IMG/VR virus record: IMGVR_UViG_3300023184_000029
Location: 64,001-128,000 of that record
Direction: 5' to 3' (one strand)
Length of the DNA: 64,000 nucleotides
Source: a virus
A program made the translations under genes and the position numbers. The notes beneath the pieces were generated by a model, which did no database searches, was not told where the DNA came from, and worked only from the letters and a program-made list of their open reading frames with translations. The number at the start of each line of letters is the position of its first letter. Positions within the stretch are counted from its first letter, which is position 1. This document shows, one piece after another, positions 13,257 through 31,302 of the stretch.

Positions 13257-13338
13257 CGTAAGTCCTTATGAATACTAAAGTTACGACAAAATTTTGCGGC
13301 CCGGCTCGTCGTAAGTCGTTATGTTGCAAGTACTTACG
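13257..13338. repeat. Repeat family A (53 bp-phased double palindrome), copy 1
   Basis: TAAGT at 13259 and 13312. Confidence 0.85.
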
Positions 13339-13363
13339 TCTAGTGAACCGTTTCGCAGCAATC

Positions 13364-13403
13364 AAAAGAGAAGGCCGCAGCCAGTTTCCCAGCTACGGCC
13401 CTC
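13364..13403 (-). terminator. Intrinsic terminator after the DUF932 gene
   Basis: GAGGGCCGTAGC/GCTGCGGCCTTC stem followed by TCTTTT on the minus strand. Confidence 0.75.
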
Positions 13404-13429
13404 CCCCTTTTCATCGTGACACGAAAAGA

Positions 13430-14377
13430 TCAGACGGCGTTCGCAAACTCCACTGCGGTATTGAGTGCTTTGACGTTATCAACCCCATTCTGTCCGAACC
13501 AGAGTGAGTCGAGGCGATTGCTCACCGTGCGACCCTTGCTATAGTTCAGATACTCATTGAAGCCATTATAGGCAGCCCACCATGTTCCACGAACATTCGT
13601 AGCACTCTGCTTCGGGCCTTCCACAAGCGTCAAGATTTCATCCATAATATTACGGGTACGAGTCTTGATATCTTCGTCCGGGGTCTTATCAATCCCCAGC
13701 AGAATCTTGACATACTTACGAATATCGTTCTGATTGAAATCCTTAGAGGCGAGGAACCTATACTGTTCCGCAGTCGCCTCGAACTGCACGTTGATATTAT
13801 CCATGATGTCTCGCACGTTATCCAGATTTGTTTTGCTGGAGCGTGTGTGACGAATCCGAATCAACTGGCTGTCCTTGTTGGAGTGGGCAGCAGCGAGAGT
13901 ATTCACGCAGACCACGCGGATCGGAGTATATCCGACGCGGATCGACGTTGTACCGTCGTGGCTGTTACTCAGCAGGATAAACTTGCTCACCTCATCGCCG
14001 GGAACAATTTCGCTGTTCGCACGATTGAGTTGAGCCAACACCCAAACCTTCTCGCCCTCACTGAGCGAACCGGCGGTGTGCAGTTGGCACTCGCCAGCGT
14101 CCAGAAACGGCTGGAACCAATCAAAAGCATCTTGATTCTGGAGAGGGGTATAACGCGGACCCACAACTCCCAGCACCCTATTATCGGTCTTACGGAAAGT
14201 CGCCTTGGCGTTGACTTCCTCGCCTTCCGACGTAAACAACGGCTTCGTACCAACTTCCCAATCCAGACCAGCAGCGGTAATCGCCTCAGAAATAGAGGGA
14301 TTCTCATCGAGCTGCGTACCCTCACCATGCCAAGGGGTAGCACCAACAAACATCATCTTTTCGACCATAGCAGGCAT
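13430..14377 (-). CDS. DUF932 / TIGR03299-like phage-plasmid protein
   Basis: Likely start MPAMVEKMMFVGATPWHG; AGSL..GEKVW.LA, LLSNSHDG, TPIRVVCVNTL, IRHT and T.WAAYN motifs. Confidence 0.88.
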   Translation of the reverse strand: MPAMVEKMMFVGATPWHGEGTQLDENPSISEAITAAGLDWEVGTKPLFTSEGEEVNAKATFRKTDNRVLGVVGPRYTPLQNQDAFDWFQPFLDAGECQLHTAGSLSEGEKVWVLAQLNRANSEIVPGDEVSKFILLSNSHDGTTSIRVGYTPIRVVCVNTLAAAHSNKDSQLIRIRHTRSSKTNLDNVRDIMDNINVQFEATAEQYRFLASKDFNQNDIRKYVKILLGIDKTPDEDIKTRTRNIMDEILTLVEGPKQSATNVRGTWWAAYNGFNEYLNYSKGRTVSNRLDSLWFGQNGVDNVKALNTAVEFANAV

Positions 14378-14477
14378 AATCAACCCTTTCGTGTTACTGA
14401 TTCTTCGTTCCGATACGCTGATTCTACCATCTATTATCGGCAGTGTCAAGGGGCAAACTTGCGGAAAAATTTCGTGA

Positions 14478-14559
14478 CGCAAGTCGTTGGTATATAAGCA
14501 CTTACGTCGGGCGGGGCCGCCCCGGCTCGTCCTAAGTCTTTTGGTGGCTTAGGTTTAGG
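14478..14559. repeat. Repeat family A, copy 2
   Basis: Half-sites at 14480 and 14533. Confidence 0.85.
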
Positions 14560-15041
14560 AGCGGAGCCTTTAGATCACGCACACACCATTTAGATCCTTC
14601 TTCATCCGGCCTATATGAACATTCATCTGGAAGATAGCAATAAATACCCTTGCAAATTGCTCTTGGATATTCATCACTAATAGTATTTTTAATTCTTCTT
14701 ATCGTTTCTCCAGAGCAAATAAGATCATCAATAACCACATATTGAAAAGGAGCAACGCCCTCAGTTCTAAATTCACTGTAGCATTTTTCATCTTTGCGAA
14801 TAATTAAAATGTGTTTATCAAGCAATTCAGCAATTTGTGGAACAACCATCAAACCACTAATACCGCAGCAAGCAATAGTGTCAAACTGATTTTTAATTTT
14901 TCTAAGATCACAAACAGCCTTTATAATTATCTTATTACGCTCTTTATGATTTAGCACACGGCAAGTGTGGCTAGCACCTTGAATAACTTTACCGTCTGGA
15001 GTACGACGAAAATCATCGGGCTTTTGGCTCAAAACATTCAT
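14532..15041 (-). CDS. Type I phosphoribosyltransferase-like protein
   Basis: IACCGISG...YVVIDDLICSGETI PRPP loop; ATG 15041 preferred because 15047-15125 is a tRNA-like element. Confidence 0.75.
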   Translation of the reverse strand: MNVLSQKPDDFRRTPDGKVIQGASHTCRVLNHKERNKIIIKAVCDLRKIKNQFDTIACCGISGLMVVPQIAELLDKHILIIRKDEKCYSEFRTEGVAPFQYVVIDDLICSGETIRRIKNTISDEYPRAICKGIYCYLPDECSYRPDEEGSKWCVRDLKAPLLNLSHQKT

Positions 15042-15046
15042 ATAAG

Positions 15047-15125
15047 TGTGGATGGCTGGATTCGAACCAGCTTTCAAGAAAGAAAGGATAAAGAAAAGAG
15101 TCTAGTCCCACCTAGAAGCATCCAC
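15047..15125 (-). ncRNA. tRNA-like RNA lacking an anticodon arm (29 nt polypyrimidine loop instead)
   Basis: Acceptor GTGGATG/CATCCAC (7/7) plus discriminator A; D-like TCTAG-GTGGGA-CTAGA; T-arm GCTGG-TTCGAAT-CCAGC; loop CTCTTTTCTTTATCCTTTCTTTCTTGAAA. Confidence 0.75.
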
Positions 15126-15130
15126 AAAAA

Positions 15131-15301
15131 TCAGCAATCATCTTCCGTTATATCAGGATAGTAATTCTTTCCATAAGAAGGAACCTCATCATCTTTTTCT
15201 TCATCCATCCAAGGTTCTTCATCTAGACCAAGATCATCGGCATTTTCTACCAATTCATCATAGTCATAATCATACTTTTCGTAATCATCACTATAACGCA
15301 T
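15131..15301 (-). CDS. Very acidic small protein
   Basis: MRYSDDYEKYDYDYDELVENADDLGLDEEPW...; own promoter at 15326-15354. Confidence 0.65.
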   Translation of the reverse strand: MRYSDDYEKYDYDYDELVENADDLGLDEEPWMDEEKDDEVPSYGKNYYPDITEDDC

Positions 15302-15355
15302 AATCAACCTTCCTTTCTTTCCAACATTATACACCAACCAAACATACTTGTCAAG

Positions 15356-15428
15356 TGGGGGCGGTGGGACTCAAACCCACGATAAACGGTTTAAAAGACC
15401 GCTACTTTAGTCGCTAAGTTACACCCCC
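15356..15428 (-). tRNA. tRNA-Lys(TTT)
   Basis: Cloverleaf; anticodon arm GCGGT-CTTTTAA-ACCGT; T-arm GTGGG-TTTGAGT-CCCAC; no encoded CCA. Confidence 0.9.
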
Positions 15429-15468
15429 AAGGGTTTTCTAGTATACCATTCTTTTTTTATTTGTCAAG

Positions 15469-15540
15469 TGACCCCACGGAGAATCGAACTCCGATCTACA
15501 GCGTGAAAGGCTGTCGTCCTAGCCGTTAGACTATGGGGCC
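15469..15540 (-). tRNA. tRNA-Glu(TTC)
   Basis: ACAGC-CTTTCAC-GCTGT; T-arm CGGAG-TTCGATT-CTCCG. Confidence 0.93.
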
Positions 15541-15580
15541 AGCCATCGCAACTCAAACGTCAGCCTCCGAAGCTTAAAAG

Positions 15581-15656
15581 TAGGGCGTGTACGAGTCGAA
15601 CGTACCTATGATCACCTTATAAGAGTGACGGATGCAACCGGCTTACCTTACGCCCC
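15581..15656 (-). tRNA. tRNA-Ile(TAT)
   Basis: TCACT-CTTATAA-GGTGA; T-arm GTACG-TTCGACT-CGTAC; A73. Confidence 0.85.
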
Positions 15657-15713
15657 GTGTCTTTCAATCATACTCTACTTATCGGCAAGAGTCAAGTCTT
15701 GTCTTTAGAAAAT

Positions 15714-15795
15714 CCTAAGTCGTTATCTGATAAGCACTTACGTCAAAAACGGCCCGCCGAATTTTTCCTAAGTCTTTTATTTTCAAATAGTTATA
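15714..15795. repeat. Repeat family A, copy 3
   Basis: TAAGT at 15716 and 15769; abuts the 3' end of tRNA-Ser. Confidence 0.85.
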
Positions 15796-15796
15796 A

Positions 15797-15883
15797 CGGA
15801 ATCTGAGGGATTCGAACCCCCGGAGGATTTTAACCCTCGGCGGTTTAGTAAACCGCTGCCTTAAACCACTCGGCCAAGATTCC
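15797..15883 (-). tRNA. tRNA-Ser(ACT), class II
   Basis: GCGGT-TTACTAA-ACCGC; long variable arm; G73; T-arm GGGGG-TTCGAAT-CCCTC. Confidence 0.85.
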
Positions 15884-15885
15884 AA

Positions 15886-15957
15886 CTCTGTGAGTAGGAC
15901 TCGAACCTACAACCGGGCGGTTAACAGCCGCCAGCTCTACCATTGAGCTATCACAGA
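15886..15957 (-). tRNA. tRNA-Asn(GTT)
   Basis: GGCGG-CTGTTAA-CCGCC; canonical D and T arms. Confidence 0.95.
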
Positions 15958-16031
15958 CCATCTTGCTTTCGAACCCGTTTGGTGTATTATACTTTAGGGT
16001 TCGATCAATTATTATAGCTGGATATCTTATA

Positions 16032-16529
16032 ATGTCAATACCAGAATTTAAAATTTGCCCAAAGTGCAAAGAAAAAAAACACAAAACCGAATATCATACA
16101 AGAAAAGACAAAGGATATACTTATCTAAAAAGCTATTGTAAACAATGTTCATCATATACCAAAACTAGAGCAGAAATACTAAAACAACAATATAACTTAT
16201 GTTCTTGTGGTAATATAAAGTCTAAAAAGGGTAAAACTTGTAAATATTGTAGTCGTATAGATCATACAGAACTATTAATAGAAAATTGCAAACACCCTAG
16301 ACGTATTGTTAAAAGAACAATAATTAGAGACAAACTTATAGATCATAAGTGTTCAGAATGTGGAATAACTAATGAATGGAATAATAAGCCTATTGTCTTA
16401 CAACTCGATCATATTAATGGTATAAATAATGATAATAGATTATCTAATTTAAGATTTTTATGCCCTAATTGCCATTCACAGACCGAAACATTTTGTGGTA
16501 GTAATATTAAAAATAAAATGCCCAGGTAG
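16032..16529 (+). CDS. HNH homing endonuclease (antisense, inside the tRNA cluster)
   Basis: CPKC Zn motifs; LQLDHINGINNDNRLSNLRFLCPNCH; stop codon lies inside the tRNA-Gln gene. Confidence 0.9.
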   Translation: MSIPEFKICPKCKEKKHKTEYHTRKDKGYTYLKSYCKQCSSYTKTRAEILKQQYNLCSCGNIKSKKGKTCKYCSRIDHTELLIENCKHPRRIVKRTIIRDKLIDHKCSECGITNEWNNKPIVLQLDHINGINNDNRLSNLRFLCPNCHSQTETFCGSNIKNKMPR

Positions 16530-16590
16530 GACTCAAACCTACAACCCGCTGATCCAAAGTCAGCTGCTCTATCAATTAAGCTACTGGGCA
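16518..16590 (-). tRNA. tRNA-Gln(TTG)
   Basis: GCTGA-CTTTGGA-TCAGC; acceptor TGCCCAG/CTGGGCA. Confidence 0.9.
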
Positions 16591-16591
16591 G

Positions 16592-16664
16592 AGCCGATGG
16601 CCGGGAACGATCCGGCGACAGGCAGTTTACAAAACTGCTACTCTACCAACTGAGTTACATCGGC
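16592..16664 (-). tRNA. tRNA-Thr(TGT), atypical T-loop
   Basis: GCAGT-TTTGTAA-ACTGC; T-loop ATCGTTC. Confidence 0.88.
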
Positions 16665-16680
16665 AATCTACCTATTATAA

Positions 16681-16887
16681 TCAATAGTGATAATCCTCGC
16701 AAGCCCGACGCTTTTCAGCGGATCGGGTTCGCAACCGCTTGGGGCGATTGTCCATAACGGTATCCCGATGTTCCTTGTGTCCCGTTGACAACTCCCAAGG
16801 CTTCTTGACCTTGACCTTGATTTTGTTGTGGTTGCGTCGTGGGCGAATATCGTCGTTGAGGTGGTGCATAGTCATGCCATATTCCAT
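16681..16887 (-). CDS. Small basic hypothetical protein
   Basis: KVKVKKPWELSTGHKEHRD...; GC-richer than upstream DNA. Confidence 0.55.
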   Translation of the reverse strand: MEYGMTMHHLNDDIRPRRNHNKIKVKVKKPWELSTGHKEHRDTVMDNRPKRLRTRSAEKRRACEDYHY

Positions 16888-17098
16888 TGTCGTGTAAATA
16901 AAAAACTTTGTCTATGTTAGGATCATAAGCCATTAGACAGTATTGTATAGGATACACAATCTTTTGTCTAGATGGTATTTTTGGAATTTTTAAATCACCT
17001 TTTTGGTAATCTTTAACGCCAGTATAGGCCAAACCTAACAGAGCAATCAATACCCCAATCCATTGGATCACGCTGTCCCATCCTTTCCGTTTAATCAT
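16715..17098 (-). CDS. Putative membrane protein (3' part overlaps 16681-16887 in another frame)
   Basis: N-terminal TM segment VIQWIGVLIALLGLAYTGV. Confidence 0.45.
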   Translation of the reverse strand: MIKRKGWDSVIQWIGVLIALLGLAYTGVKDYQKGDLKIPKIPSRQKIVYPIQYCLMAYDPNIDKVFYLHDNGIWHDYAPPQRRYSPTTQPQQNQGQGQEALGVVNGTQGTSGYRYGQSPQAVANPIR

Positions 17099-17139
17099 AT
17101 CATAGTTATCGGCACTTGTCAACCTTTTCTTTAAAAAAT

Positions 17140-17221
17140 CCTAAGTGGTTGAGGCCATTGCACTTACGTCAAATTTGGCCGGCCCCGCTCGCCCTAAGTG
17201 CTTATGCAGTAAGGGTTTGCG
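17140..17221. repeat. Repeat family A, copy 4
   Basis: TAAGT at 17142 and 17195. Confidence 0.85.
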
Positions 17222-17228
17222 GTTAGTT

Positions 17229-17465
17229 TTAGTCGTTACCTAGCGTCCATCCACCCATCTTTGCGATTACGTTCAGTTTCAAAACTTCCGTTTGCTTATC
17301 AGCAGTTAGATAGTCTCTAAAACCACGCTCATCAATATAGAAGTATTCATCTAATGTATCAAACTTATTACTCTCAAACAAACTTGTAACCGCCGCTTCA
17401 ACAGAACTTTTATCTGTAGAGTAAATTAGTTCCAGAGTACCACACTTGATATAATATTTAGACAT
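17229..17465 (-). CDS. Hypothetical protein
   Basis: 78 aa; YFYIDERGFR. Confidence 0.65.
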   Translation of the reverse strand: MSKYYIKCGTLELIYSTDKSSVEAAVTSLFESNKFDTLDEYFYIDERGFRDYLTADKQTEVLKLNVIAKMGGWTLGND

Positions 17466-17476
17466 TTTTCAATTCC

Positions 17477-18001
17477 TTAGTAGGCATATTCATTTTTATG
17501 TTCAAACTGTCCATAAATATCTTTATCCCAACCACCAAAACTCTCAACCCCAACATCTATCACCACAGGAACCCATGCTCCGTTTCTTCTAACATATCCA
17601 AAGTTTCCTCTATGATGATCGGAGTAGTCCAGCCCACATAGGTGTAGTTCCCAAACTATTTCCCCAATGATAGTACAGTTACTGCAACCACTCTCAAAAC
17701 AGTCTCCGTCACAATACTCGTAACTACACTGTGACATCAATCTAGCAATTTCTGTCAAATAACCATACTCTGTCAATCCTTGATTACTATTTCGGCGAAT
17801 TCTGCCAACTTGACCGTACACACGCGGAGCCAAGTCTTGCTCTGCCAGAATACTTTGAACTTTATGAGCAAAATCTGCTTCCTCTTTAGATTTAAACTCT
17901 TTGAAACCCACACGTTTACGATCTATCTTTCTGTCTTTGATAATATAGAAAGCATTTTTACTTCCCTCATCATCATACAAACCCAAATATATATTAGTCA
18001 T
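17477..18001 (-). CDS. Protein kinase-like (PKL) fold protein
   Basis: GSKNAFY, VGFKEF, APRVYG, DHHRGNFG (catalytic loop) and VIDVG (DFG-like). Confidence 0.7.
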   Translation of the reverse strand: MTNIYLGLYDDEGSKNAFYIIKDRKIDRKRVGFKEFKSKEEADFAHKVQSILAEQDLAPRVYGQVGRIRRNSNQGLTEYGYLTEIARLMSQCSYEYCDGDCFESGCSNCTIIGEIVWELHLCGLDYSDHHRGNFGYVRRNGAWVPVVIDVGVESFGGWDKDIYGQFEHKNEYAY

Positions 18002-18170
18002 TATTTATTTCCGTTCTAATATATTCCATATCTTGATCCGGACAATAGATACACATAGGTGTACCATTTTCACTATACCACCAAGGCTCTACATAAACGT
18101 GTTTATCACACTCGGGACACTCCCATCTACTTCTAACTTTTTTATCGTCAATAGTTTGCCAGTTTTCCAT
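17994..18170 (-). CDS. Small Zn-finger protein (58 aa, not in the ORF track)
   Basis: Own translation: MENWQ...WECPECD...PMCIYCPD; GGA RBS. Confidence 0.6.
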   Translation of the reverse strand: MENWQTIDDKKVRSRWECPECDKHVYVEPWWYSENGTPMCIYCPDQDMEYIRTEINND

Positions 18171-18178
18171 AGTAATCC

Positions 18179-18892
18179 TTAGTGAGCAGGAAACAATACA
18201 TTAGCCAAACCACGAACACACAAGTCACAGTGTACGCTATTTTTGGTTTTTGTGCAAGTGACAACTCCACGACCACGACGAATTTCCGGGCAAGTGATAA
18301 ACTTTTCACCTTCCAGCACAACCAGTTTCGGTAGTGCTGATCGCCATGCTGCAACCTTATTCTTGCCACGCGGACGCTTAGGGGCAATTTTAGTATCACT
18401 ATCACACCATGCGAACAGTTTGAAACCAGCAGCCTTAGCCTGTTTCATATCTTCACCATCATGGATACTAGCATACATATTGATATACTTGCCAAGTTCC
18501 ATAGACAATCTGGTATCATAAATATGGGTATAAGCCCACATGGTCGGCAGACTACCACCACTAGCAAGAATATTCTCACAAGCCCACAATACATTATCAA
18601 CATATTCATTGTCAAGTTCACCATACTTGAAAAAGTCGCCACGCTCATGCCAGCGAACATCTTTATTTTTCTTGACGGCATCCACCAGCATGGAGCGAAT
18701 ACGATTCTTTTCTGTAACAAGATTTTGCATACCGGCAGGACGAACACCGGGATAGATATTTTCCAAATCTTCTGCATAGCATCCGTTACCGAGAAAATCA
18801 CAATCGGACGGACAACTATCACCAACCGGACGCGAAACCACAATACAATTTTCCTTACCCAACTTATCATTACCATTTGCAGTTTTCATCAT
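18179..18892 (-). CDS. Gp88-like protein (radical-SAM-related phage family)
   Basis: GNDKLG, CPSDC...CYA, RWHERGDF, WAYT and C-terminal CP...C..C. Confidence 0.75.
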   Translation of the reverse strand: MMKTANGNDKLGKENCIVVSRPVGDSCPSDCDFLGNGCYAEDLENIYPGVRPAGMQNLVTEKNRIRSMLVDAVKKNKDVRWHERGDFFKYGELDNEYVDNVLWACENILASGGSLPTMWAYTHIYDTRLSMELGKYINMYASIHDGEDMKQAKAAGFKLFAWCDSDTKIAPKRPRGKNKVAAWRSALPKLVVLEGEKFITCPEIRRGRGVVTCTKTKNSVHCDLCVRGLANVLFPAH

Positions 18893-18968
18893 TATTCTCC
18901 CTTGTCTACCGATTCTACACTATATTATCGGCTAGTCAAGACCAATTCTTGAAGAAATTATTTTTTGA

Positions 18969-19050
18969 TGCAAAGGCTTGTGGCATAAGGACTTACGTCA
19001 AACGGGGCCGCCCGGATTTATCCTAAGTGCTTACTGGCGAAGGGTTTAGA
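18969..19050. repeat. Repeat family A, copy 5
   Basis: Half-sites at 18971 and 19024. Confidence 0.85.
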
Positions 19051-19106
19051 ATCGAATCTGTTTTGGTGTATATAGAAGTAGTTAAACTTTCTATTAGGAG
19101 ATTAAT

Positions 19107-20139: not shown

Positions 20140-20338
20140 TGTAAAAAACCTTTCCAAAAGTGTTATCGAACCAAGTAAAGTAATTATACACACCAAACAT
20201 CACTTGTCAAGGGCTAAGTCGAACTTTGTAGTTTGCGATCAACCAGCGTCTTGTCGTGTGATGCTATCATTCTACCATATAGTATCGTCATCGTCAAGGT
20301 GTTTGCATGAATGATTTTTTGGTATTCTCATGATTTGT

Positions 20339-20420
20339 TCTAAGTTGTTGAAGTATAAGGAGTTACGTCAAATTTGGCCGGCCCGCCTCGCCGTAAGTGT
20401 TTTACGGACAAGGCTTTAGG
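20339..20420. repeat. Repeat family A, copy 6
   Basis: TAAGT at 20341 and 20394. Confidence 0.85.
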
Positions 20421-20792
20421 TCAAGAGAGAAAGCCCTCACAACCCAAAGTGGTCAGTTCACGCAGCAACTTCTCAGCCGCTTCGGGCGTCTTGAAAGTAA
20501 TGCTCTGCCTAACGTTCGGTTGAGCAGGAACGAACCTATCATACTTCCAGCCACCCACCATACCATCGGTCCACTCCTTACTTTCCTTCAAACCCCAGCC
20601 AGTAGCAATCCGAATCGCCTTGATGCAAGGGATGCGGTTGTCCAGAGTCATGCCGCCAGTGATCGTCACCTGTCGCCTCTGGTTCACGCCCAGAGCAATC
20701 TCAATAGCGTTGACGATACGATCATGCAAATCATTGCTAGCCGTATTAGCAATAGCAACAGCCTCGGCCACAGTCACCTGAATACTAATCAT
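20421..20792 (-). CDS. Ribosomal protein bL12 (L7/L12) C-terminal-domain-like protein
   Basis: NRIPCIKAIRIATGWGLKESKEWTD...TPEAAEKLLRELTTLGC, compared with bL12 KI.VIK.VR..TGLGLKEAK. Confidence 0.75.
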   Translation of the reverse strand: MISIQVTVAEAVAIANTASNDLHDRIVNAIEIALGVNQRRQVTITGGMTLDNRIPCIKAIRIATGWGLKESKEWTDGMVGGWKYDRFVPAQPNVRQSITFKTPEAAEKLLRELTTLGCEGFLS

Positions 20793-21316: not shown

Positions 21317-21457
21317 GCAGGCTTCCGCCATACTCGACCAACATTTCAGACAACCTCTTTTGATATCATTGTGGTTGTCCCCACACTTGCTTTCCCGTTT
21401 AAGTATACCTCTATTATCGGCAAATGTCAAGAGAAGTCTTTAAAAAATATTTTTGAA

Positions 21458-21539
21458 CGTAAGTCTTTTGCGGTCAAGTACTTACAACAAATTTCGCCCG
21501 CCGGATTTCTCCTAAGTCCTTATGCTGTAAGAAGTTACA
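21458..21539. repeat. Repeat family A, copy 7
   Basis: TAAGT at 21460 and 21513. Confidence 0.85.
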
Positions 21540-21540
21540 T

Positions 21541-21714
21541 CTAAGAGTTTTCAAAAACTAACTCCACATATTTATTAACAAGTTCAGGTAGTGAAATCTC
21601 ATGAGTACCGATTAGTTCTTTAGTCTTATCTACATTGTGCTTATTTACAGCGGCCATTCTATTTTTGAAAAAACTCAGAATATAGATCATGGCCTTTTCT
21701 CTATCGTTAGTCAT
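21541..21714 (-). CDS. Hypothetical protein
   Basis: MTNDREKAMIY..., 57 aa. Confidence 0.55.
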   Translation of the reverse strand: MTNDREKAMIYILSFFKNRMAAVNKHNVDKTKELIGTHEISLPELVNKYVELVFENS

Positions 21715-22624: not shown

Positions 22625-22702
22625 ATTTTTTCTCCTGTGCTACCATTCTACTATCTATTATCGACACTGTCAAGAGGGTTTCTTGAAGAAAAATTTTTAA
22701 GA

Positions 22703-22784
22703 TGTAAAGTGTTGTAGCACAAGCAGTTACGACGAGCCGGGCCGCCCCCGTTTGCTCTAAGTCTTTTAGCAGCAAGACTTTATA
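22703..22784. repeat. Repeat family A, copy 8
   Basis: Half-sites at 22705 and 22758. Confidence 0.85.
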
Positions 22785-22785
22785 T

Positions 22786-23043
22786 CTACTTTAGCAGATA
22801 GGTTATTTTCTGTCCATTTTCAATCATAGCCGTATAGGCCGCAATTCGCCTATCCTTTTCACGCTTCTCAATTTGGTGGTCTGTCTCACCGATCTCTAGC
22901 GAGTCGCACTTACGCTCCAGATCAGTTAAAGAAACGCTATCAGTACGATTGTCTCTAAATTCTTCTGGCAGCCAGCTATTTGGAACCAGAATCAGATCAT
23001 TGATAAGTTTCTCAAATTCTGCCAGCAACTCATAACCATTCAT
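22786..23043 (-). CDS. Hypothetical protein downstream of the large structured RNA
   Basis: ATG 23043 with AAAGGAG RBS; 85 aa. Confidence 0.75.
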   Translation of the reverse strand: MNGYELLAEFEKLINDLILVPNSWLPEEFRDNRTDSVSLTDLERKCDSLEIGETDHQIEKREKDRRIAAYTAMIENGQKITYLLK

Positions 23044-23560: not shown

Positions 23561-23622
23561 TCAATCATTCTACCATCTATTATCGGCTTGTCAAGAGAGT
23601 TTCTTGAAAAATTATTTCTAGA

Positions 23623-23704
23623 CGCAAATCGTTTAGAGATAAGGACTTATGTCGAGTTCGGCCGCCCGCCCTATCCCTAAGTTGTTTAAGGATAAGGACT
23701 TACG
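23623..23704. repeat. Repeat family A, copy 9
   Basis: Half-sites at 23625 and 23678. Confidence 0.85.
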
Positions 23705-23705
23705 A

Positions 23706-23909
23706 TTAGTTATTACTAGCCCCAATAGACTCACGAACTCTAACGATACCATCAGTTCTGGCAATCTCAAGAGCCTTACAAAAGAACTCAAAGAAAGTAT
23801 CCATTTCAGTATGTACAGCTTGCTCATCAACAGTGGTAGCATTTATCAGACAAATGGCAAAATTTCTCACACAATCAGAAACAGCATCTCGTTCTTCAGT
23901 TGTCAACAT
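23706..23909 (-). CDS. Hypothetical protein
   Basis: 67 aa; GGGAGAG RBS; promoter at 23930-23958. Confidence 0.7.
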   Translation of the reverse strand: MLTTEERDAVSDCVRNFAICLINATTVDEQAVHTEMDTFFEFFCKALEIARTDGIVRVRESIGASNN

Positions 23910-24779: not shown

Positions 24780-24867
24780 TATTATGTCCTTGTTGGCAGT
24801 TTTCGTTCCTCGATAGTCTTAGGATACCATCACTATCGGCAGTTGTCAATAGATTTCTAAAATTAAT

Positions 24868-24949
24868 CGTAAACCCATATGGCTTAAGGAGTTGCGTCAA
24901 ATTCGGCCCGCCGCCCGCGTCCTAAGTCCTTTGGTGTCAAAGGGTTAGG
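24868..24949. repeat. Repeat family A, copy 10
   Basis: Half-sites at 24870 and 24923. Confidence 0.85.
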
Positions 24950-24979
24950 AGTTGGGCATTCTTTAGGCAGAAACTGCTA

Positions 24980-25384: not shown

Positions 25385-25452
25385 AATCAACCCTTTCGTT
25401 AGGAAAACCAATCGTTCAACTCTCAGCATTCTACAACTATTATCGACATTTG

Positions 25453-25746: not shown

Positions 25747-25828
25747 ACTTCACCCCTTCTTTCATATTGTCATTCTACCATCTATTATCGACCAATGCAA
25801 GAGGGAATCTTGAGAAAATTTTTTTAGA

Positions 25829-25910
25829 CGTAAAGTGTTGATACATAAAGAGTTACGTCAAATTTTTGCGGCCCCGCTCGCCCTAAGTCGTTATCTGACA
25901 AGGGTTTGCG
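25829..25910. repeat. Repeat family A, copy 11
   Basis: Half-sites at 25831 and 25884. Confidence 0.85.
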
Positions 25911-25917
25911 GATAGTT

Positions 25918-26145
25918 TCACTCAAAGTCTACAAATATAACTTGAGCATAACCCCTAGGCTTAATTGTAAAGCCATCGCCAAAATCATAAGTATCACTCT
26001 TAACGCCCGTCATGCCAGCCAGTTTCTTAGCATGATATGTTACGCTACGCTGAGAGTCATTCTTGGGAACAAACTCCCAACGCTTCACCCAACCATAATT
26101 AGCTTCACCACCGAAAGTATCGGTATGAGTTACAACACATTTCAT
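25918..26145 (-). CDS. Conserved hypothetical phage protein
   Basis: TDTFGGEANYGWVKR motif. Confidence 0.8.
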   Translation of the reverse strand: MKCVVTHTDTFGGEANYGWVKRWEFVPKNDSQRSVTYHAKKLAGMTGVKSDTYDFGDGFTIKPRGYAQVIFVDFE

Positions 26146-26345
26146 ATTCCAATCTCCTCTGAACTAAAAGAACAAACATTCAAGCCACTAGCGGCCACAA
26201 CAGTATCAAACATGATACCAAGAAACTCTTGTCGGTCAACAGCATCTGTCATGTTATGTTCCGGCAAGTCTAGAACATACTCGCTCGAAATAGGCTGTTC
26301 ACCATTTTCATTTTCCACAACAATATCAAAGAATCGGCATTTCAT
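26142..26345 (-). CDS. Hypothetical acidic protein
   Basis: 67 aa; ATGA coupling. Confidence 0.65.
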   Translation of the reverse strand: MKCRFFDIVVENENGEQPISSEYVLDLPEHNMTDAVDRQEFLGIMFDTVVAASGLNVCSFSSEEIGI

Positions 26346-26608
26346 TAGTAATCTTCTCCCCCAAAGTAACCGTAATCTTCATCCGTTCCGAATCCCGCAT
26401 CACGCATGGCTGAATCAAAATCCCCATCCATGCTATCATCGTAAGAATCATATTCTTCGTTCTCCAAATCTTCTTCATCATCATCAGTAAACTGACTCTC
26501 AACTTCATGCTCCGCGTCTGGATGATAGCTTGAACTATCCTCTCCATAGAAAACAGCATCATCATCATAAGAATTATCAAAATCGTAAAGGGGATCAGGA
26601 TGGCTCAT
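26345..26608 (-). CDS. Extremely acidic protein
   Basis: Asp/Glu-dominated; DFDSAMRDAGFGTDEDYG. Confidence 0.75.
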   Translation of the reverse strand: MSHPDPLYDFDNSYDDDAVFYGEDSSSYHPDAEHEVESQFTDDDEEDLENEEYDSYDDSMDGDFDSAMRDAGFGTDEDYGYFGGEDY

Positions 26609-26666
26609 GTTTCTTTTCCTTTCTTATGGTCACAGTCTATCAAAAAAAACTTAGCTTGTCAAGAGA

Positions 26667-26873
26667 CTACCACCGATTCCGGCGATACTCTTCTCGCAAA
26701 TCCTCTTCCTCTTGCCTTTGGCGACGAGTAACAGCCGGACCTTCGCCGGTCAGGTAAGCGTCACGGGCAGCATCGTAACCGTCATCACTATCTTCCATCG
26801 GCTCACAATGCTCACCACAACGCGGGCAAATATCTTGAAACCGAACCAGAATACCACAGCAATCACTAATCAT
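26667..26873 (-). CDS. Zn-ribbon small protein
   Basis: SDCCG...CPRCGEHCE. Confidence 0.7.
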   Translation of the reverse strand: MISDCCGILVRFQDICPRCGEHCEPMEDSDDGYDAARDAYLTGEGPAVTRRQRQEEEDLREEYRRNRW

Positions 26874-26948
26874 CTTTCACTCTCTCTTTCTCTCACTCTA
26901 TCCTACACTACTATTATCGGCTTGTCAAATGCCTTTTCTTGAATCTTT

Positions 26949-27122
26949 CTAGATTGAAAGGTTGTCCGAATACTCTTCCGGTACACACTCGTCCACAACC
27001 CCAACAATGTCGGCCCAATCCCAAAAATCAACTTCCACGCTAGGATCGTCAATCGGCTCAACAACCCCTTCGCTCACCATGCCAGCCAGAATCAGATTGA
27101 TTTCATCAAAATCGTGAAGCAT
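26949..27122 (-). CDS. Acidic small protein
   Basis: MLHDFDEINL..., 57 aa; promoter at 27160-27187. Confidence 0.6.
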   Translation of the reverse strand: MLHDFDEINLILAGMVSEGVVEPIDDPSVEVDFWDWADIVGVVDECVPEEYSDNLSI

Positions 27123-27270
27123 TGGTATTTTCCTTAGTGGTTTCCCTTGTGATGCTGTCATTCTACAGTGTTTATCGGCCAATGCAAGGTAAATCTTTGG
27201 AATTTTTTAAATATAATTCTGTGCCAAACGGGAAATATTTTTGTGGCACAGCTTTTGCGTCGATGCTCGT

Positions 27271-27352
27271 CGTAAGTCTATGCTATCAAAGTAGTTACGA
27301 TTCGCGGGGCCGCCCCGGTTTGCCCTAAGTCTTTATAGGGCAAGGGTTTGCG
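27271..27352. repeat. Repeat family A, copy 12
   Basis: TAAGT at 27273 and 27326. Confidence 0.85.
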
Positions 27353-27558
27353 TTAAGAATTTACAATCCAAGCAACCAAGCAACCAGCCACAAAAGAAAT
27401 GGTAAGAATGATAGAATCCGAATTAATCATTATTATCCTCGCTATTCCTTACATAAAAAACCAAATCAGAAACAAACCAAGAACACAACACGCCAGCAAC
27501 AAATCCCACACCTATTTGTACCCAGTTAATATCGACCATCCTTGTCGCCTTTCTTTAA

Positions 27559-27789
27559 TTATGCGGGGTTCAAAGCATTATCCGCAAGAGTAGTAATCTT
27601 AGACCAAGCAGAATCCACAGTATTATCATCACGCAAATAAATTGTATGCTGATCGCCGGGAATATCACTAATAATAGAAACTTGCCAACCACAAGGGGTA
27701 GACCAACCACAACCCGAACGAGTAATAATAACCTCACAACCCTCAAGGTAAGTATCGGTCAATTCTCTAATTTGTTCAACAGTAATCAT
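27559..27789 (-). CDS. Hypothetical protein
   Basis: 76 aa. Confidence 0.65.
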   Translation of the reverse strand: MITVEQIRELTDTYLEGCEVIITRSGCGWSTPCGWQVSIISDIPGDQHTIYLRDDNTVDSAWSKITTLADNALNPA

Positions 27790-27791
27790 TT

Positions 27792-28063
27792 TTATTCCTT
27801 ATTCTTCCAATACTGATTTTGCAGATAATTATCAACAACACCAAAAGCCTGAGCAAACAACCAGAAAGCCACGTTAGCAAAAGCATACATGGCAAGGATA
27901 GTAAAAATCCAAGCATTTATAATGATAATATTGGTCATTTTCCAACCTTCTCTTTCTTCTGCATCATTTCCAGATAGAGTTTTTCCAACAACTTAACCTG
28001 TTTAATAGCACGATTAGTTTCCCGATCCATTCTTTCAATAGCTTTTTGATGTGAAGTTTTCAT
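27792..28063 (-). CDS. Two micro-ORFs (27935-28063, 42 aa coiled-coil; 27792-27938, 48 aa TM peptide)
   Basis: Own translation; ATGA coupling; promoter at 28093-28120. Confidence 0.55.
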
Positions 28064-28162
28064 TTCTTTTTTCCTCTACTTCTTATATCGACATTCTACC
28101 GTCTAATCTTTAGTTGTCAACTAGAAAATTTTCTTGCAATATTGAAAGGTTCCCCTAGCTTG

Positions 28163-28208
28163 CTGACTATACCCAGCTTGCCCAAATCCGCAGGATTAGC
28201 TGAGACTA
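28163..28208. repeat. Dispersed repeat family B, copy 7
   Basis: CTGACTA-N13-CAAATC-CGCAG-GATTAG-CTGA-GAC. Confidence 0.75.
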
Positions 28209-28233
28209 TCAACAATCCCCAGATGACAGGAGA

Positions 28234-28392
28234 CTATGCCGCCTCACCATCATCATAACCGGGGATATAATCCGGTTCGGAATCATACGAAACAACTTCA
28301 CAATGTTCGCCACAATCTGGGCAAATCCCATGATCCATCATGATACCATCCATCTCATACCCACAGCAATCCGAAACCATCATGTCTTCCAT
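28234..28392 (-). CDS. Zn-ribbon acidic peptide (52 aa, not in the ORF track)
   Basis: MEDMMVSDCCG...CPDCGEHCE...PDYIPGYDDGEAA; paralog of 26667-26873. Confidence 0.7.
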   Translation of the reverse strand: MEDMMVSDCCGYEMDGIMMDHGICPDCGEHCEVVSYDSEPDYIPGYDDGEAA

Positions 28393-28550
28393 TCTCTTAT
28401 CCTTCTTTCTTTCTGTCTTACTTCTTATATCGACATTATACCATGTTCATCTTGAGCTTTCAAGAGAAATCCAGAAATTTTATTGTCAAAAGATTTTGAC
28501 AAAACTTTTCGTAATTTTGTGGAGGTTTGGCACACCATTTGCTAAGTTGT

Positions 28551-28632
28551 CGTAAAGTCTTATGGGGTAAGAACTTACATCAAGCCCGGCCCGCCCCGTT
28601 TGTCGTAAGTCTTTATATGGCAAGCACTTAGG
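28551..28632. repeat. Repeat family A, copy 13
   Basis: Half-sites at 28553 and 28606. Confidence 0.85.
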
Positions 28633-28813
28633 AGATACTTTGGCGACTGCCTATAATTTCAGCAGCAATGCTTCGAATTAGAGCATCTTTCACTGCCGGA
28701 TTAGTCACGCATTCTTCCGTGAGCCTTTCGGCCAGAGAACATGATGCGTCCATCATTTCCAAAGCACCTTGCAAGCCAAGGCTCATCCAAATTTTTTCCA
28801 TCGGTGAGAACAT
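28628..28813 (-). CDS. Hypothetical protein
   Basis: 61 aa. Confidence 0.6.
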   Translation of the reverse strand: MFSPMEKIWMSLGLQGALEMMDASCSLAERLTEECVTNPAVKDALIRSIAAEIIGSRQSIS

Positions 28814-28825
28814 TTGTATAGCCTT

Positions 28826-29038
28826 TCAATTCCATCCAAAGTTTTGATCGAGAAACGGTCCGTAGATCATACCCTCATCGATCCAGCACTCATTCAGTTT
28901 CGAGGTAGTGGCATCGAACCGAACACAATACATAGCTACCCTGTCCCCGATTGCTGGCAGGATGTTCACCACCACAGCCCACGCCAGATCGGCACCAATC
29001 CTTGAACCAACCTGAACCCTATCACCAATTTGAATCAT
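28826..29038 (-). CDS. Small SH3/KOW-like beta-barrel protein
   Basis: MIQIGDRVQV...AVVVNI...YCVRFD. Confidence 0.55.
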   Translation of the reverse strand: MIQIGDRVQVGSRIGADLAWAVVVNILPAIGDRVAMYCVRFDATTSKLNECWIDEGMIYGPFLDQNFGWN

Positions 29039-29098
29039 TCTGTTCTCTCTTTCTTGTGTTGGTATTCTAGCGAAGTTTTTTCTGATCGTCAACCCCCA

Positions 29099-29305
29099 CT
29101 ATCGGGTGGTCGCACCGTTCGCTTTGGCATACCGATACAACGCTCGCTCGTCCACCATGAAACGCTGAACACCCTTCAAATCCTTGAAATCCCAATGGTA
29201 GGTGAGAACGTCAGAGCTGACCATCCAACGGGCTTCGATGCTCGAAGTCTTCTTCAGCGTATAGCCCAACTTCTTCAACTCTTTCTCAATCGTCTTGCTA
29301 TTCAT
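29099..29305 (-). CDS. Hypothetical protein
   Basis: 68 aa; promoter at 29335-29363. Confidence 0.65.
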   Translation of the reverse strand: MNSKTIEKELKKLGYTLKKTSSIEARWMVSSDVLTYHWDFKDLKGVQRFMVDERALYRYAKANGATTR

Positions 29306-29479
29306 CTTTCTCTCTCTTTCTTTCTTGTGCTATCATTATACCAGTATTATCGTCCAATGTCAATAGCCTAGATCAGAAAAAGTTTCCTTACAATGCTGTA
29401 AGGTTGGAGAAGCAAGTTTGGCACAGGATTTGCTAGTGATCAGAATATAGGCAGAAACGCCTAATATGTAAGCATTGAA

Positions 29480-29561
29480 CCTAAGTTGTTGGTATATAAG
29501 CACTTACGTCAAATTTGGCGGCGAAAAATCGCCGTAAGTCCTTTGGTAGCAAGGCTTTACG
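29480..29561. repeat. Repeat family A, copy 14
   Basis: TAAGT at 29482 and 29535. Confidence 0.85.
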
Positions 29562-29590
29562 TCGAGTTTTTTTGTACAGTGTACGGAAGA

Positions 29591-29920
29591 TCACCCCTCC
29601 GAAAAGGGGGATACTTCCTCTCCACAAGCAAGAATCGCGGTATATTGCGATTCCAGAGCAGCAACCCTTTCGGCAGAACCCGGCTTGCCAACTCTCACAA
29701 TCATGCGATCCTCACCCCCCACAAGGCGGGGATCGGCCTTTTCCTTGCGAATCTTGCCCAGATTCTTTAGGGCTTTACGATTGAACTTCAGCACCTTCTC
29801 ACTACGGATTGGGCCATACACCCCATCCGCAAGGGAGGGTTGGTGAGGAATCGCAATCCCGAGGAAGCACAGTCTGGCTTGACGCTTGGCGTTTTCGACG
29901 ATAGGGAACTTGGTTTTCAT
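29591..29920 (-). CDS. Hypothetical protein
   Basis: 109 aa, GC-rich; promoter at 29950-29977. Confidence 0.7.
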   Translation of the reverse strand: MKTKFPIVENAKRQARLCFLGIAIPHQPSLADGVYGPIRSEKVLKFNRKALKNLGKIRKEKADPRLVGGEDRMIVRVGKPGSAERVAALESQYTAILACGEEVSPFSEG

Positions 29921-30083
29921 TTTCTTTCTCTCTTTCTTCTTATACCGACATTATACAGGCTTTTCTTTAGGTTGCAAGCGAAATCTTTGGTAGTTTCCTT
30001 ACAATATCGTAAGGTTTCCCACAGCAAATATCGTGCCAAAAAAGAATATTTTACTTTGGCATACGATATGCGTCCAAACTTGA

Positions 30084-30165
30084 CGTAAGTCGTTGCAGCA
30101 TAAGTACTTAGAGAAAATTTTGCGGCGAAAATTTGTCGTAACTCCTTATGGGCTAAGGGTTTGCG
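30084..30165. repeat. Repeat family A, copy 15
   Basis: Half-sites at 30086 and 30139. Confidence 0.85.
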
Positions 30166-30336
30166 ACTCGTTTTTCCACCTATACAGTAGTTCAGCACAC
30201 AATTCCTTAATACTATTTTTAATATTTTCTTTATCTGATTCGCTCAAAGCATATTGCAAACGAATTTGCTCAATCCTTAAAGCGGTTTGTACTGTACATT
30301 TGCTTAGTTGAGAAACTTTCATTTGAACACCTATTC

Positions 30337-30555
30337 TTATTTAGCATGAAAAAAAACATTCTCATTACCAACAGTCTTATTAGTAATGGTCACAATCCAA
30401 TTCTTTCCGCTGCCATCTTCACGCATCACACAATTGATAATACCAACATGGGCATTTCCCTTAGTGTCGATAACACACCCATACTTACCCGTTCGCATAG
30501 CAGAGAAAATCTTGTCGAGGTTATTCACTACCGGTTTATAAGCTGTTGCAAACAT
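30337..30555 (-). CDS. Hypothetical protein
   Basis: 72 aa; GIINCVMREDGSGKNWIV. Confidence 0.7.
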   Translation of the reverse strand: MFATAYKPVVNNLDKIFSAMRTGKYGCVIDTKGNAHVGIINCVMREDGSGKNWIVTITNKTVGNENVFFHAK

Positions 30556-30723
30556 TAGTATTCACCCAAAGTAAAAGAAAGGAACGTAAACAAAAAGATA
30601 GACGGCCCAACCGATTAGAAACACTTGAATACCCAAGCCACTAATCATTCCGAAAGTATCCACATCATCGGGATGCTCACCAAACAAATTGTAGCAGATC
30701 CAGTTTTTCATTTTCTTTTCCTT

Positions 30724-30909
30724 TCAAGCAAATTCTTCTTCACCCTGGAAATCGTCCAGCCACTCATCGTTCGTTTCGATGTGCTCATCGGCATCACCCA
30801 TGATCGGATCCCATTCACCATCATCATAGCCTGGGATATAATCGGCCTCATCTCCATATCCCACGATCCATTCCTCGCCGTTTTCGTCAATCATCTTTTC
30901 CATTTTCAT
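30724..30909 (-). CDS. Acidic small protein
   Basis: Shares DYIPGYDDGE with 28234-28392. Confidence 0.6.
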   Translation of the reverse strand: MKMEKMIDENGEEWIVGYGDEADYIPGYDDGEWDPIMGDADEHIETNDEWLDDFQGEEEFA

Positions 30910-31220
30910 TCTCACTTTCTCTAGTATTCTACTAAGATATTTTCTATTCGTCAAGCCCGATTCATGAATGAGATAGCCTCGTCGGCACTCTTGAAAATCC
31001 CAAGCAAAATCCTCTTGCCATTCTGGTCGTGATAAACCTTAAACTTCCGGCCAATCTGAATCATCGTGAGCGTGATCATTTTCTTTTCTCCCTTTTTCTC
31101 TTGTGCTTTCATTATACAGTGTTTATCGACGCTTTCAAGAGAAATCTTTGTAATTTTTCAAATATAATTTCATGCCAAATAAAGATATTTTTATGGTATG
31201 GCCTTTGCGTCAAAAATCGT

Positions 31221-31302
31221 CATAAGTCATTCCCACACAAGCACTTACATCAAATTTTGCGGAGTATAATGATCATAAGTTCTTATACCGTATAGGTTTA
31301 GG
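31221..31302. repeat. Repeat family A, copy 16 (degenerate core)
   Basis: TAAGT at 31223 and 31276. Confidence 0.75.

Follow-up and report, generated by a model that had tools for sequence, protein, structure and literature searches.

Our analysis revealed that the repeated element in the early region of this phage (uncultured, freshwater, genome of 186,542 bp) is best read as a polar, dyad-symmetric DNA site for a multimeric sequence-specific protein that would act on the adjacent early promoter (probability roughly 0.55). A multimeric DNA-binding protein (a dimer of dimers or larger) would most likely occupy all copies; we infer the binding and the sign of its effect from sequence.

In the window (the whole stretch of 64,000 nucleotides analyzed), a letter check confirmed elements at all 16 first half-sites listed by the first-pass annotation. 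The profile scan that it had proposed for the genome and its relatives was performed with nhmmer. The profile of the 16 copies hit exactly 16 sites in the genome (E-values from 3e-18 to 5e-27), all within 13.2-31.3 kb of the window, in a single orientation and with no net indels in the alignment. The 25-bp palindrome pattern gave 25 matches (3 with the reversed control). Distances between elements, computed from the coordinates of the 16 window copies, agree with those given before (604-1829 bp, mean 1198), and the elements are indeed confined to the GC-mosaic early region (GC content of 37-44% vs 29-35% on either flank, no copy elsewhere). The elements are listed below (window coordinates, no strand assigned; copies 1 to 16 by coordinate check and nhmmer).

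13172..13204, truncated element (one palindrome and the core start) at the far array end
13259..13343, copy 1 (last in the array by transcription direction)
14480..14564, copy 2
15716..15800, copy 3, right end adjoining the tRNA-Ser 3' end
17142..17226, copy 4
18971..19055, copy 5
20341..20425, copy 6
21460..21544, copy 7
22705..22789, copy 8
23625..23709, copy 9
24870..24954, copy 10
25831..25915, copy 11
27273..27357, copy 12
28553..28637, copy 13
29482..29566, copy 14
30086..30170, copy 15
31223..31307, copy 16 (array start; comes after the subtilase gene)

Each element consists of two 25-bp palindromes enclosing a GC-rich core, and the dyad centre lies at 39.5, between the halves of GGCC-GGCC. 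The geometry of the palindromes stands as first described, while four 10-bp boxes (TAA-N4-TTA at positions 1, 16, 54 and 69) are a better description of the conserved units. The reportedly invariant 53-bp period was found in 16/16 window copies, and about 500 further copies from related freshwater phage contigs have the same length in 98% of cases (identical in 485/494). In an alignment-free motif test, the inner gap was 28 bp in 716/729 motif pairs and the palindrome spacer was 7 bp in 1015/1021. Among 432 unique copies, several A/T positions are nearly 100% invariant beside near-random neighbours. Orientation to transcription is also invariant (438/456 copies; the remaining 18 are ambiguous calls of at most 12 bits), and each of five complete genomes has the elements in one region and one orientation. 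The right end usually abuts an upstream stop codon or tRNA, as had been noticed; upstream ORFs terminate on stop codons that the element itself supplies, at its right edge or inside it (model positions 83/84 in 104/357, further positions 90, 78, 63 and 55), and tRNA-Ser adjoins the copy at 15716.

A conserved intergenic module, about 150 bp long, has the element as its upstream part and on the minus strand runs from the upstream stop through the 85-bp element, an A/T-rich, UP-like linker (an A-run/T-run tract upstream of the -35 box) and a near-consensus sigma70-type promoter to the next cassette, so that each cassette has its own promoter. The promoter consensus among relatives is cTTGACA-16/17-TGnTAGAAT, and a sigma70-type promoter follows every window copy (16/16), as listed below with the gap in bp between the left end of the element and the -35 box.

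13216..13244, minus strand, weak promoter after copy 1, TAGACA-17-TATACT, gap 14
14421..14449, minus strand, promoter TTGACA-17-TAGAAT, gap 30
15667..15695, minus strand, promoter TTGACT-17-TATGAT, gap 20
17094..17122, minus strand, promoter TTGACA-17-TATGAT, gap 19
18912..18939, minus strand, promoter TTGACT-16-TAGAAT, gap 31
20269..20297, minus strand, promoter TTGACG-17-TAGAAT, gap 43
21402..21430, minus strand, promoter TTGACA-17-TATACT, gap 29
22645..22673, minus strand, promoter TTGACA-17-TAGAAT, gap 31
23567..23594, minus strand, promoter TTGACA-16-TAGAAT, gap 30
24821..24849, minus strand, promoter TTGACA-17-TATCCT, gap 20
25772..25800, minus strand, promoter TTGCAT-17-TAGAAT, gap 30
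27160..27187, minus strand, promoter TTGCAT-16-TAGAAT, gap 85, extra TGCCA/TGGCA motifs in the gap
28435..28463, minus strand, promoter TTGAAA-17-TATAAT, gap 89, sigma54-like motif in the gap on the plus strand
29335..29363, minus strand, promoter TTGACA-17-TATAAT, gap 118
29950..29977, minus strand, promoter TTGCAA-16-TATAAT, gap 108, TGGCAC-N5-TTGC in the gap
31111..31138, minus strand, promoter TTGAAA-16-TATAAT, gap 84

The gap clusters at about 20, 30-31 and 41-42 bp. In the window it is 19-20 bp in three copies and 29-31 bp in six to seven, the others being 14, 43 and five values within 84-118 bp. The helical phasing to the promoter that had been proposed is seen in relatives as well: after de-duplication (133 modules), the gap is 19-21 bp in 20, 29-32 bp in 68 and 38-46 bp in 41 modules, and in-between values occur in only 4/133 (27, 33, 35 and 35). 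Part of this three-way grouping could stem from a few ancestral linkers by descent, not from selection. Because the element keeps a fixed helical face, at 20, 30/31 or 41/42 bp to the -35 box, RNA polymerase at the neighbouring early promoter would be the target of a bound protein. The element is not an obligatory activator site, since its promoters come close to consensus and others of their class do without it (three inside the array and three outside); that several promoters have no element had also been pointed out before. Given such near-consensus promoters, and with no excess of intrinsic terminators (15 terminator-like sites vs 13.4 expected in the region, where promoter-like sites number 99 vs 49 expected), coordinated shut-off or insulation against read-through would be favoured over activation.

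The complete sister phages G004 and G005 have no element of the type described above (type A). Their slot holds another double palindrome (type C: CTGCCAAAATGGCAG, 14-bp GC core, repeated; 29-bp period), which precedes orthologous cassette genes (e.g., GP88-like and DUF932 genes, 67-79% identity). Because of this 29-bp period, the earlier argument from five helical turns is not general. No mixed type-A/type-C arrays were seen among the genomes compared, and the median identity of core proteins to this phage is about equal in the two element groups (63% vs 58%). We know of no nameable regulator consensus that the type-A or type-C palindromes match. The array-wide swap of element type points to a matching trans-acting protein. 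Against this reading, gene conversion could, through concerted evolution, help to keep an array uniform.

The binder suggested in the first-pass annotation, the conserved product of 33082-33303 at the head of the early operon, does look DNA-binding (a three-helix HTH and an RGRP AT-hook). As a type-specific reader it was rejected for want of co-variation with element type, because the invariant third helix is shared by its orthologues in phages of the other type, and the alignment has no column by which the two groups can be told apart. Additionally, about 20 plausible type-A-specific ORFs showed no recognisable DNA-binding domain in Pfam.

Comparison of gene content between elements across relatives revealed gain, loss and replacement of cassettes at the elements. 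The 411 cassettes can be sorted into 182 families; part of the backbone order is conserved, with insertions and replacements of whole cassettes, and homology breakpoints are about 3-6 fold enriched within 100 bp of elements. At junctions, the distal palindrome goes with the upstream cassette and the proximal one partly with the downstream cassette, and contigs from lake metagenomes join cassettes inside elements (e.g., 24879 to 20357 and 21434 to 24885). These observations support the earlier idea of PeSL-like cassette-shuffling junctions, while the spacing rule suggested with it is not supported, the 411 gaps in relatives running from 375 to 3489 bp (median 1042, sd 450) and tracking cassette size. 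It is conceivable, though rather unlikely, that the primary role of the element is recombinational, a PeSL-like junction of mobile regulatory cassettes in which protein binding is secondary and which is kept because the phage can shuffle early ORFan cassettes with it. The exchange data, the almost complete restriction of cassette genes to ORFans and the use of element stop codons by upstream ORFs all fit such a role. However, homologous recombination needs similarity only, and leaves unexplained why invariant positions stand beside free ones, why polarity and the phase to the -35 box are fixed, and why an unrelated palindrome type has replaced the element across whole arrays. Furthermore, crossovers are spread across the element rather than at one fixed point, and no tyrosine or serine recombinase was found in the 186.5-kb genome (no match to Phage_integrase, with positive controls, or to Resolvase). 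Under the protein-site reading, the exchange would be a by-product, with the 16 directly repeated modules serving as homology for cassette gain, loss and replacement.

The element may also be a protein-dependent transcription stop or insulator, at which read-through from the upstream cassette is halted by a protein on the site, or by a polymerase holoenzyme bound there stably, because the region has no hairpin terminators; we consider this improbable, and it overlaps with the preferred one without excluding it. The element always comes directly after a gene end, terminator-like sites are not in excess despite many strong co-directional promoters, and at the start of the early operon, where the first promoter has no co-directional gene before it, an upstream element occurs in 0 of 80 loci. 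Nevertheless, some promoters in the array follow gene ends without an element, and phasing to the -35 box would be superfluous for a pure roadblock.

There is a small probability that the element is the enhancer (upstream activator sequence) at which a host sigma54 activator drives sigma54-type promoters in the modules. The -24/-12-like motif TGGCA[CT]-N5-TTGC[AT] occurs 65 times in 431 modules (0.4 expected, about 160-fold), within 0-60 bp past the element; dyads in pairs are a usual feature of sigma54 activator enhancers, and type-C palindromes end in TGGCA, some overlapping the full -24/-12 motif. But only about 15% of modules have the motif, it runs antisense to the early genes in 50/65 cases, 11/16 window copies have a sigma70-type promoter alone, no Sigma54_activat domain was found in the phage, and the distances fall short of those usual for looping.

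A GC-rich centre within an imperfect palindrome at gene 3' ends could suggest a structured RNA or a DNA hairpin/cruciform (an intrinsic terminator, a REP/BIME-type mRNA stabiliser or an attC-like folded site), which is very unlikely here. Among the 432 unique copies, covariation was absent for all three possible hairpin registers (pairing equals the independent-column expectation), and the strongest mutual information was only between adjacent columns. The folding energy of real copies was not better than that of shuffles (core z = +0.2) or column chimeras, the elements have no U tract, the Rfam search of 12-34 kb in the window matched only tRNAs and a Pistol ribozyme and no family for the element, and, as stated, no integrase was found. 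With neither covariation nor excess folding, the element is therefore read as double-stranded DNA and not as hairpins or intrinsic terminators, which favours the protein-type binding site proposed earlier. Finally, a selfish, MITE-like miniature transposable element would be short, palindromic overall and present in many copies as here, but is hardly credible for copies confined to one 18-kb region, one orientation and the same slot between gene end and promoter, with almost no length variation and the same restriction in four other complete genomes.

For a clade of large freshwater phages, we tentatively suggest a recombinase-free cassette platform for the host-takeover region, in which all junctions would carry one lineage-specific 'address' (a rigid double operator) of at least two exchangeable types, each read by one putative master protein (phage or host) that switches or insulates all early cassettes together. 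With one master protein per address type, the whole array would be re-addressed when that protein changes. The 78-bp cis element is precisely delimited and highly rigid, has hundreds of variants in nature together with a natural swap of specificity, and so offers an unusually good handle for the early-gene master regulator of an abundant uncultured group of lake phages of 150-240 kb. If the reader is a host factor, element type would mark the host range of metagenomic phage contigs.

Among the known REP, MITE and operator families that the first-pass annotation had set against its own reading, REP/BIME identity was rejected (no hairpin pairing, one region, one orientation), as was MITE identity (all five complete genomes confine the copies to a single region and orientation), and Rfam gave no match. 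Integron attC sites are likewise imperfect palindromes of 60-140 bp bounding gene cassettes in an array. In contrast to them, the elements here have no integrase, no conserved core sites and no folded-strand constraint (pairing as in independent columns), their cassettes have their own promoters instead of a common one, and crossovers are not at a single point. Like the enhancers of sigma54 activators such as NtrC, the elements lie upstream of a promoter and pair dyad-symmetric sites at a distance of a few helical turns, and sigma54-type motifs are strongly enriched in the modules, whereas here the promoters are mostly sigma70-type only, most sigma54-like motifs face the opposite way and no activator gene is present.

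The operator sites of protein p4 in Bacillus phage phi29 are inverted repeats with 15 bp between half-sites, located upstream of the A2c/A2b/A3 promoters, where the bound dimer or tetramer contacts the polymerase. Similarly, the elements are paired inverted repeats whose outer half-sites lie about two helical turns from each other, and the sigmaA/sigma70-type promoters follow at about 70-90 bp. However, phi29 has four sites in one control region and this phage has 16 at cassette junctions, the sequences are unrelated, and no p4 homologue (Phi-29_GP4) was matched in this genome.

PeSLs are the promoter-early stem-loop cassettes of T4-type phages; the stem-loop that makes up their upstream part has been demonstrated to act as a transcription terminator (Arbiol et al., 2010, PMC2839356; Comeau et al., 2014, PMC4122927). 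PeSLs and the modules here are both composite intergenic repeats in which a GC-rich upstream part is followed by an AT-rich tract and then by a strong sigma70-type early promoter. Both border ORFan cassettes where the early region is plastic, and both are breakpoints of insertion, deletion and replacement between relatives. They differ in that the element here is a rigid 78-85-bp four-box dyad without pairing constraint instead of a terminator stem-loop, keeps one polarity, is helically phased to the -35 box, and can be swapped array-wide for another palindrome type; moreover, this phage does not belong with the T4-like ones (no isolate has a terminase more than 27% identical to its own, with Bacillus siphophages as best matches). 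The PeSL idea, that regulatory repeats double as shuffling junctions, is in this way extended to an unrelated phage lineage and to a module that is putatively protein-site-based, not hairpin-based.

The double palindrome, an 85-bp unit referred to here as the type-A element, proves to be a genuine cis element, both rigid and widespread. Its source record (186,542 bp, rated complete by CheckV) derives from lake and freshwater metagenomes. All 16 elements of the first-pass annotation were recovered where it had placed them, and an nhmmer-type profile of the 16 copies, searched against the whole genome, returned exactly 16 sites (E-values 3e-18 to 5e-27), all within window 13.2-31.3 kb, which confirms their confinement to the early region. 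The copies share a single orientation and align with zero net indels. The element matches its own reverse complement more weakly, and is thus a dyad overall; a simple palindrome pattern gave 25 matches, compared with 3 for the reversed control. The genes and tRNAs of the array stretch lie on the minus strand, and its GC content is 37-44% versus 29-35% on both sides. For the whole cassette array (window 12000-32000, cassettes being the genes between elements) the range is 37-44%, and for the genome the value is 34%. At the far array end, past a weak promoter, one palindrome and the first core bases form a truncated element (13172-13204) that looks like a deletion remnant.

Viral contigs were scanned for relatives with the inner-dyad pattern and then with the profile, which was built without gaps; in the collection scan, a locus counted when one or more of its copies had ACTTACGTC-N23-CTAAGT. 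This yielded 523 elements from 104 loci, in arrays with about 1 kb spacing. Related contigs are not independent, and de-duplication was applied to the count of copy lengths and to the classes of distance to the -35 box. Identical length was found in 485 of 494 full copies (de-duplicated; gapless profile), and alignment-free motif tests put the inner gap at 28 bp (716 of 729 pairs) and the palindrome spacer at 7 bp (1015 of 1021). Each of four further complete genomes (200-230 kb) holds 13-17 exact inner-dyad motif matches and 0 control matches, and profile scans of three of them found 15-17 copies in one 17-20-kb block each. The 53-bp period is therefore conserved in relatives and is kept. The proposed spacing rule is abandoned: neighbouring elements in relatives are 375-3489 bp apart (median 1042, sd 450, right-skewed), which is the size distribution of cassettes with 1-4 small genes and not a ruler.

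No megablast match was found among isolated phages, and terminase identity to any isolate is at most 27%. Literature searches, both conceptual and with motif strings, turned up no account of the element, and in an informal comparison none of the LexA, Rex, CIRCE, NtrC, SoxR or Fur-family consensus sites fits the palindromes. A scan of genome_contigs for a host clue returned only freshwater MAG contigs of many unrelated phyla and chance singles. The array-bearing contigs L124, L131, L132, L133, L137 and others sit in freshwater MAGs labelled Gammaproteobacteria, Alphaproteobacteria, Planctomycetota, Methylococcaceae and others; most likely they are mis-binned phage DNA.

The logo of 432 unique copies consists of four 10-bp boxes, TAA-N4-TTA, at element positions 1-10, 16-25, 54-63 and 69-78. 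The inner boxes (TAAGsACTTA and TAAGTsCTTA) are mirror images of each other and the best conserved of the four; the outer boxes are weaker versions of them. The dyad centre falls at position 39.5, within a GGCC|GGCC core flanked by CAAAyyy or CGAGCss words that occur in either half. Several A/T positions are invariant at about 100% of these copies, and the two 6-7-bp 'loops' are essentially random sequence. Compensatory change was found neither in the long hairpin register nor in either local register: pairing equals the expectation for independent columns, observed pairing at variable pairs is often below it, and the strongest mutual information links adjacent columns in every case. Shuffles fold at least as well as the core (z = +0.2), and column-by-column chimeras at least as well as real copies; there is no U tract, and the elements have no match in Rfam. 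The region has 15 terminator-like sites (13.4 expected) and 99 promoter-like ones (49 expected). A hairpin or terminator reading is rejected for the lack of covariation, of excess folding and of a terminator-like excess. Many variable copies without compensatory change imply that sequence is conserved on duplex DNA, the signature of a protein-binding site.

In minus-strand order the upstream gene ends and the element follows, as had been claimed for its right end; the upstream stop codon lies between the element edge and 30 nt inside, in all three frames. Downstream come an A-run/T-run linker and a near-consensus promoter (cTTGACA-16/17-TGnTAGAAT), and a promoter of this class follows 16/16 window copies. 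Promoters without an element, also reported earlier, do exist: of 18 promoters of the same class in the genome, six have none (three within the array, three elsewhere), and many more strong minus-strand promoters lie within cassettes. The element keeps one orientation with respect to transcription (438 of 456 copies, the other 18 being ambiguous calls of 12 bits or less). Distances from the element to the -35 hexamer cluster at 20, 30-31 and 41-42 bases; with related modules collapsed, the classes are 19-21 (n = 20), 29-32 (n = 68) and 38-46 (n = 41), and only 4 of 133 fall in between. The helical phasing suggested by the first-pass annotation is supported. Within the window, three copies have a gap of 19-20 and seven one of 29-31, the others lying at 14, 43 or 84-118. 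The ladder step is about 10.5-11 bp and places the centre of the proximal palindrome near -69, -79 or -90, positions at which bound proteins are known to contact polymerase. The longer gap classes have extra motifs inserted. Classes this narrow, in otherwise freely diverged sequence, point to selected spacing; common ancestry of the linkers in a few types may also play a part.

Sister phages carry a second element type. The 73-aa gene heading the early operon (33082-33303) was used as clade marker and has relatives on at least 324 viral contigs; type-A elements lie downstream of it in 39 of the 56 loci with enough sequence, and upstream in 0. The sister complete genomes G004 (149.5 kb) and G005 (224 kb) carry the marker and lack type A. 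The same slot is occupied there by a type-C structure, CTGCCAAAATGGCAG, a 14-bp GC-rich core and CTGCCAAAATGGCAG again, with a period of 29 bp in 28 of 34 neighbouring pairs, fixed orientation, and the same kind of linker and promoter following. Among the copies listed, type-C variants are not compensatory. The arrays are:

L177:12700-19500, type-C array of G004, 25 palindromes in the genome
L180:13250-19900, type-C array of G005, 39 palindromes in the genome

Orthologous cassette genes, such as a GP88-like gene (67-73% identity) and a DUF932 gene (76-79%), have the element of their own phage group ahead of them, type A or type C, with similar spacing in the two. Mixed arrays were absent among those examined. 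Core proteins of the two groups have diverged from this phage to much the same extent (median identity 63% for the type-A group and 58% for the type-C group). A whole array has thus been re-equipped with the other palindrome, genes and promoters being retained. On the simplest interpretation, every copy has to fit a single trans-acting reader. The promoter spacer (-35 to -10) carries a conserved gCCGATAAtAGA word, also given as gCCGATAA, in type-A and type-C phages alike; such a word is unusual in promoters of the sigma70 type, and another protein may bind there. Examples are:

14421-14449, promoter with the gCCGATAAtAGA spacer word
22645-22673, promoter with the gCCGATAAtAGA spacer word
23567-23594, promoter with the gCCGATAAtAGA spacer word

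The 73-aa protein (33082-33303, minus strand), first gene of the early operon, had been named as a candidate binder. Its DNA-binding look is upheld by the model: a predicted three-helix bundle (pLDDT 83) is followed by an RGRP AT-hook, and the HTH protein is conserved, with an RRQRRKL basic stretch. Fold matches are weak only and to generic three-helix DNA-binding domains (Myb, GcrA, small terminase), and a PDB sequence search gave nothing significant. Co-variation with element type is lacking: the two phage groups share an invariant third helix and 0 alignment columns separate them, which rules the protein out as type-specific reader. Speculatively, it might have a target common to both types, e.g., the linker or the promoter spacer. 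A sigma-like protein (33517-34179) likewise shows no co-variation with element type and was rejected as reader. No integrase, resolvase, HU/IHF, sigma54 activator or phi29 p4 homologue was detected in the genome. Presence/absence profiling of six complete genomes (four type-A, two type-C) yielded 44 ORFs specific to type A, and none of the 20 plausible ones has a DNA-binding Pfam domain. The largest identity gaps between types among core proteins belong to an IMPDH/GMP reductase-like enzyme, a GHKL ATPase and a subtilase. The GHKL-domain protein (895 aa; 34752-37439, minus strand, in genome coordinates of this phage, G000, outside the window) shows the second largest gap, with 84% identity among type-A phages and 58% to type-C. 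Synteny at the four usable loci gave no candidate for allelic replacement. The reader is possibly a host protein; the two element types would then be markers of different hosts.

Two further features accompany the array:

27190-27270, 28470-28550, 29370-29480, 29980-30085 and 31140-31220, TGGCAC-N5-TTGC (-24/-12) motifs with TGCCA/TGGCA inverted repeats
19816-19878, minus strand, Pistol ribozyme (Rfam; 50 bits, gathering score 34.5), just upstream of tRNA-Arg

The former lie between the five rightmost elements and their own promoters. In relatives, 65 sigma54-type motifs occur in 431 modules against 0.4 expected (about 160-fold), just beyond the element, and 50 of the 65 point opposite to the early genes, i.e., in the late-gene direction. 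The Pistol match probably accounts for the 'structured RNA' noted earlier at that spot.

The suggestion that elements serve as cassette-shuffling junctions is supported by cassette gain and replacement and by breakpoint enrichment at elements. Nearly all cassette genes are ORFans. There are 182 families among the 411 inter-element cassettes; the backbone order is partly conserved, and whole-cassette insertions and replacements are many across relatives; the window has three unique cassettes in place of two backbone ones, plus one inserted. Homology breakpoints in relatives are about 3-6 fold enriched within 100 bp of elements. Where only the upstream cassette is shared, similarity of the distal palindrome is 0.77 (0.79 in fully orthologous junctions) and the core and proximal palindrome are intermediate; where only the downstream cassette is shared, the gradient is reversed. 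These opposite gradients indicate crossovers spread over the element and its flanks, as expected of homologous exchange and not of a site-specific recombinase. In contigs of other lake samples, some cassettes are joined inside elements (e.g., 24879 to 20357 and 21434 to 24885), and many other joints lie away from elements.

The element is best explained as a putative protein-docking operator coupled to early promoters and doubling as a cassette junction. A reader protein would dock at it and act on the adjacent early promoter, with either sign of effect. The phi29 p4 operators and the paired dyads of sigma54 enhancers have similar geometry, but membership fails, as the p4 homologue and the cognate activator, respectively, are missing in this phage. 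The closest described system is the PeSL (promoter-early stem-loop) of T4-type phages, which combines a stem-loop terminator, an AT-rich tract and a sigma70 early promoter, flanks ORFans in hyperplastic regions and mediates modular shuffling (PMC2839356, PMC4122927). The element shares three of four testable PeSL features, but lacks the stem-loop terminator, and the phage is unrelated to T4. In this way, the element is PeSL-like in evolution and stands outside the PeSL family.
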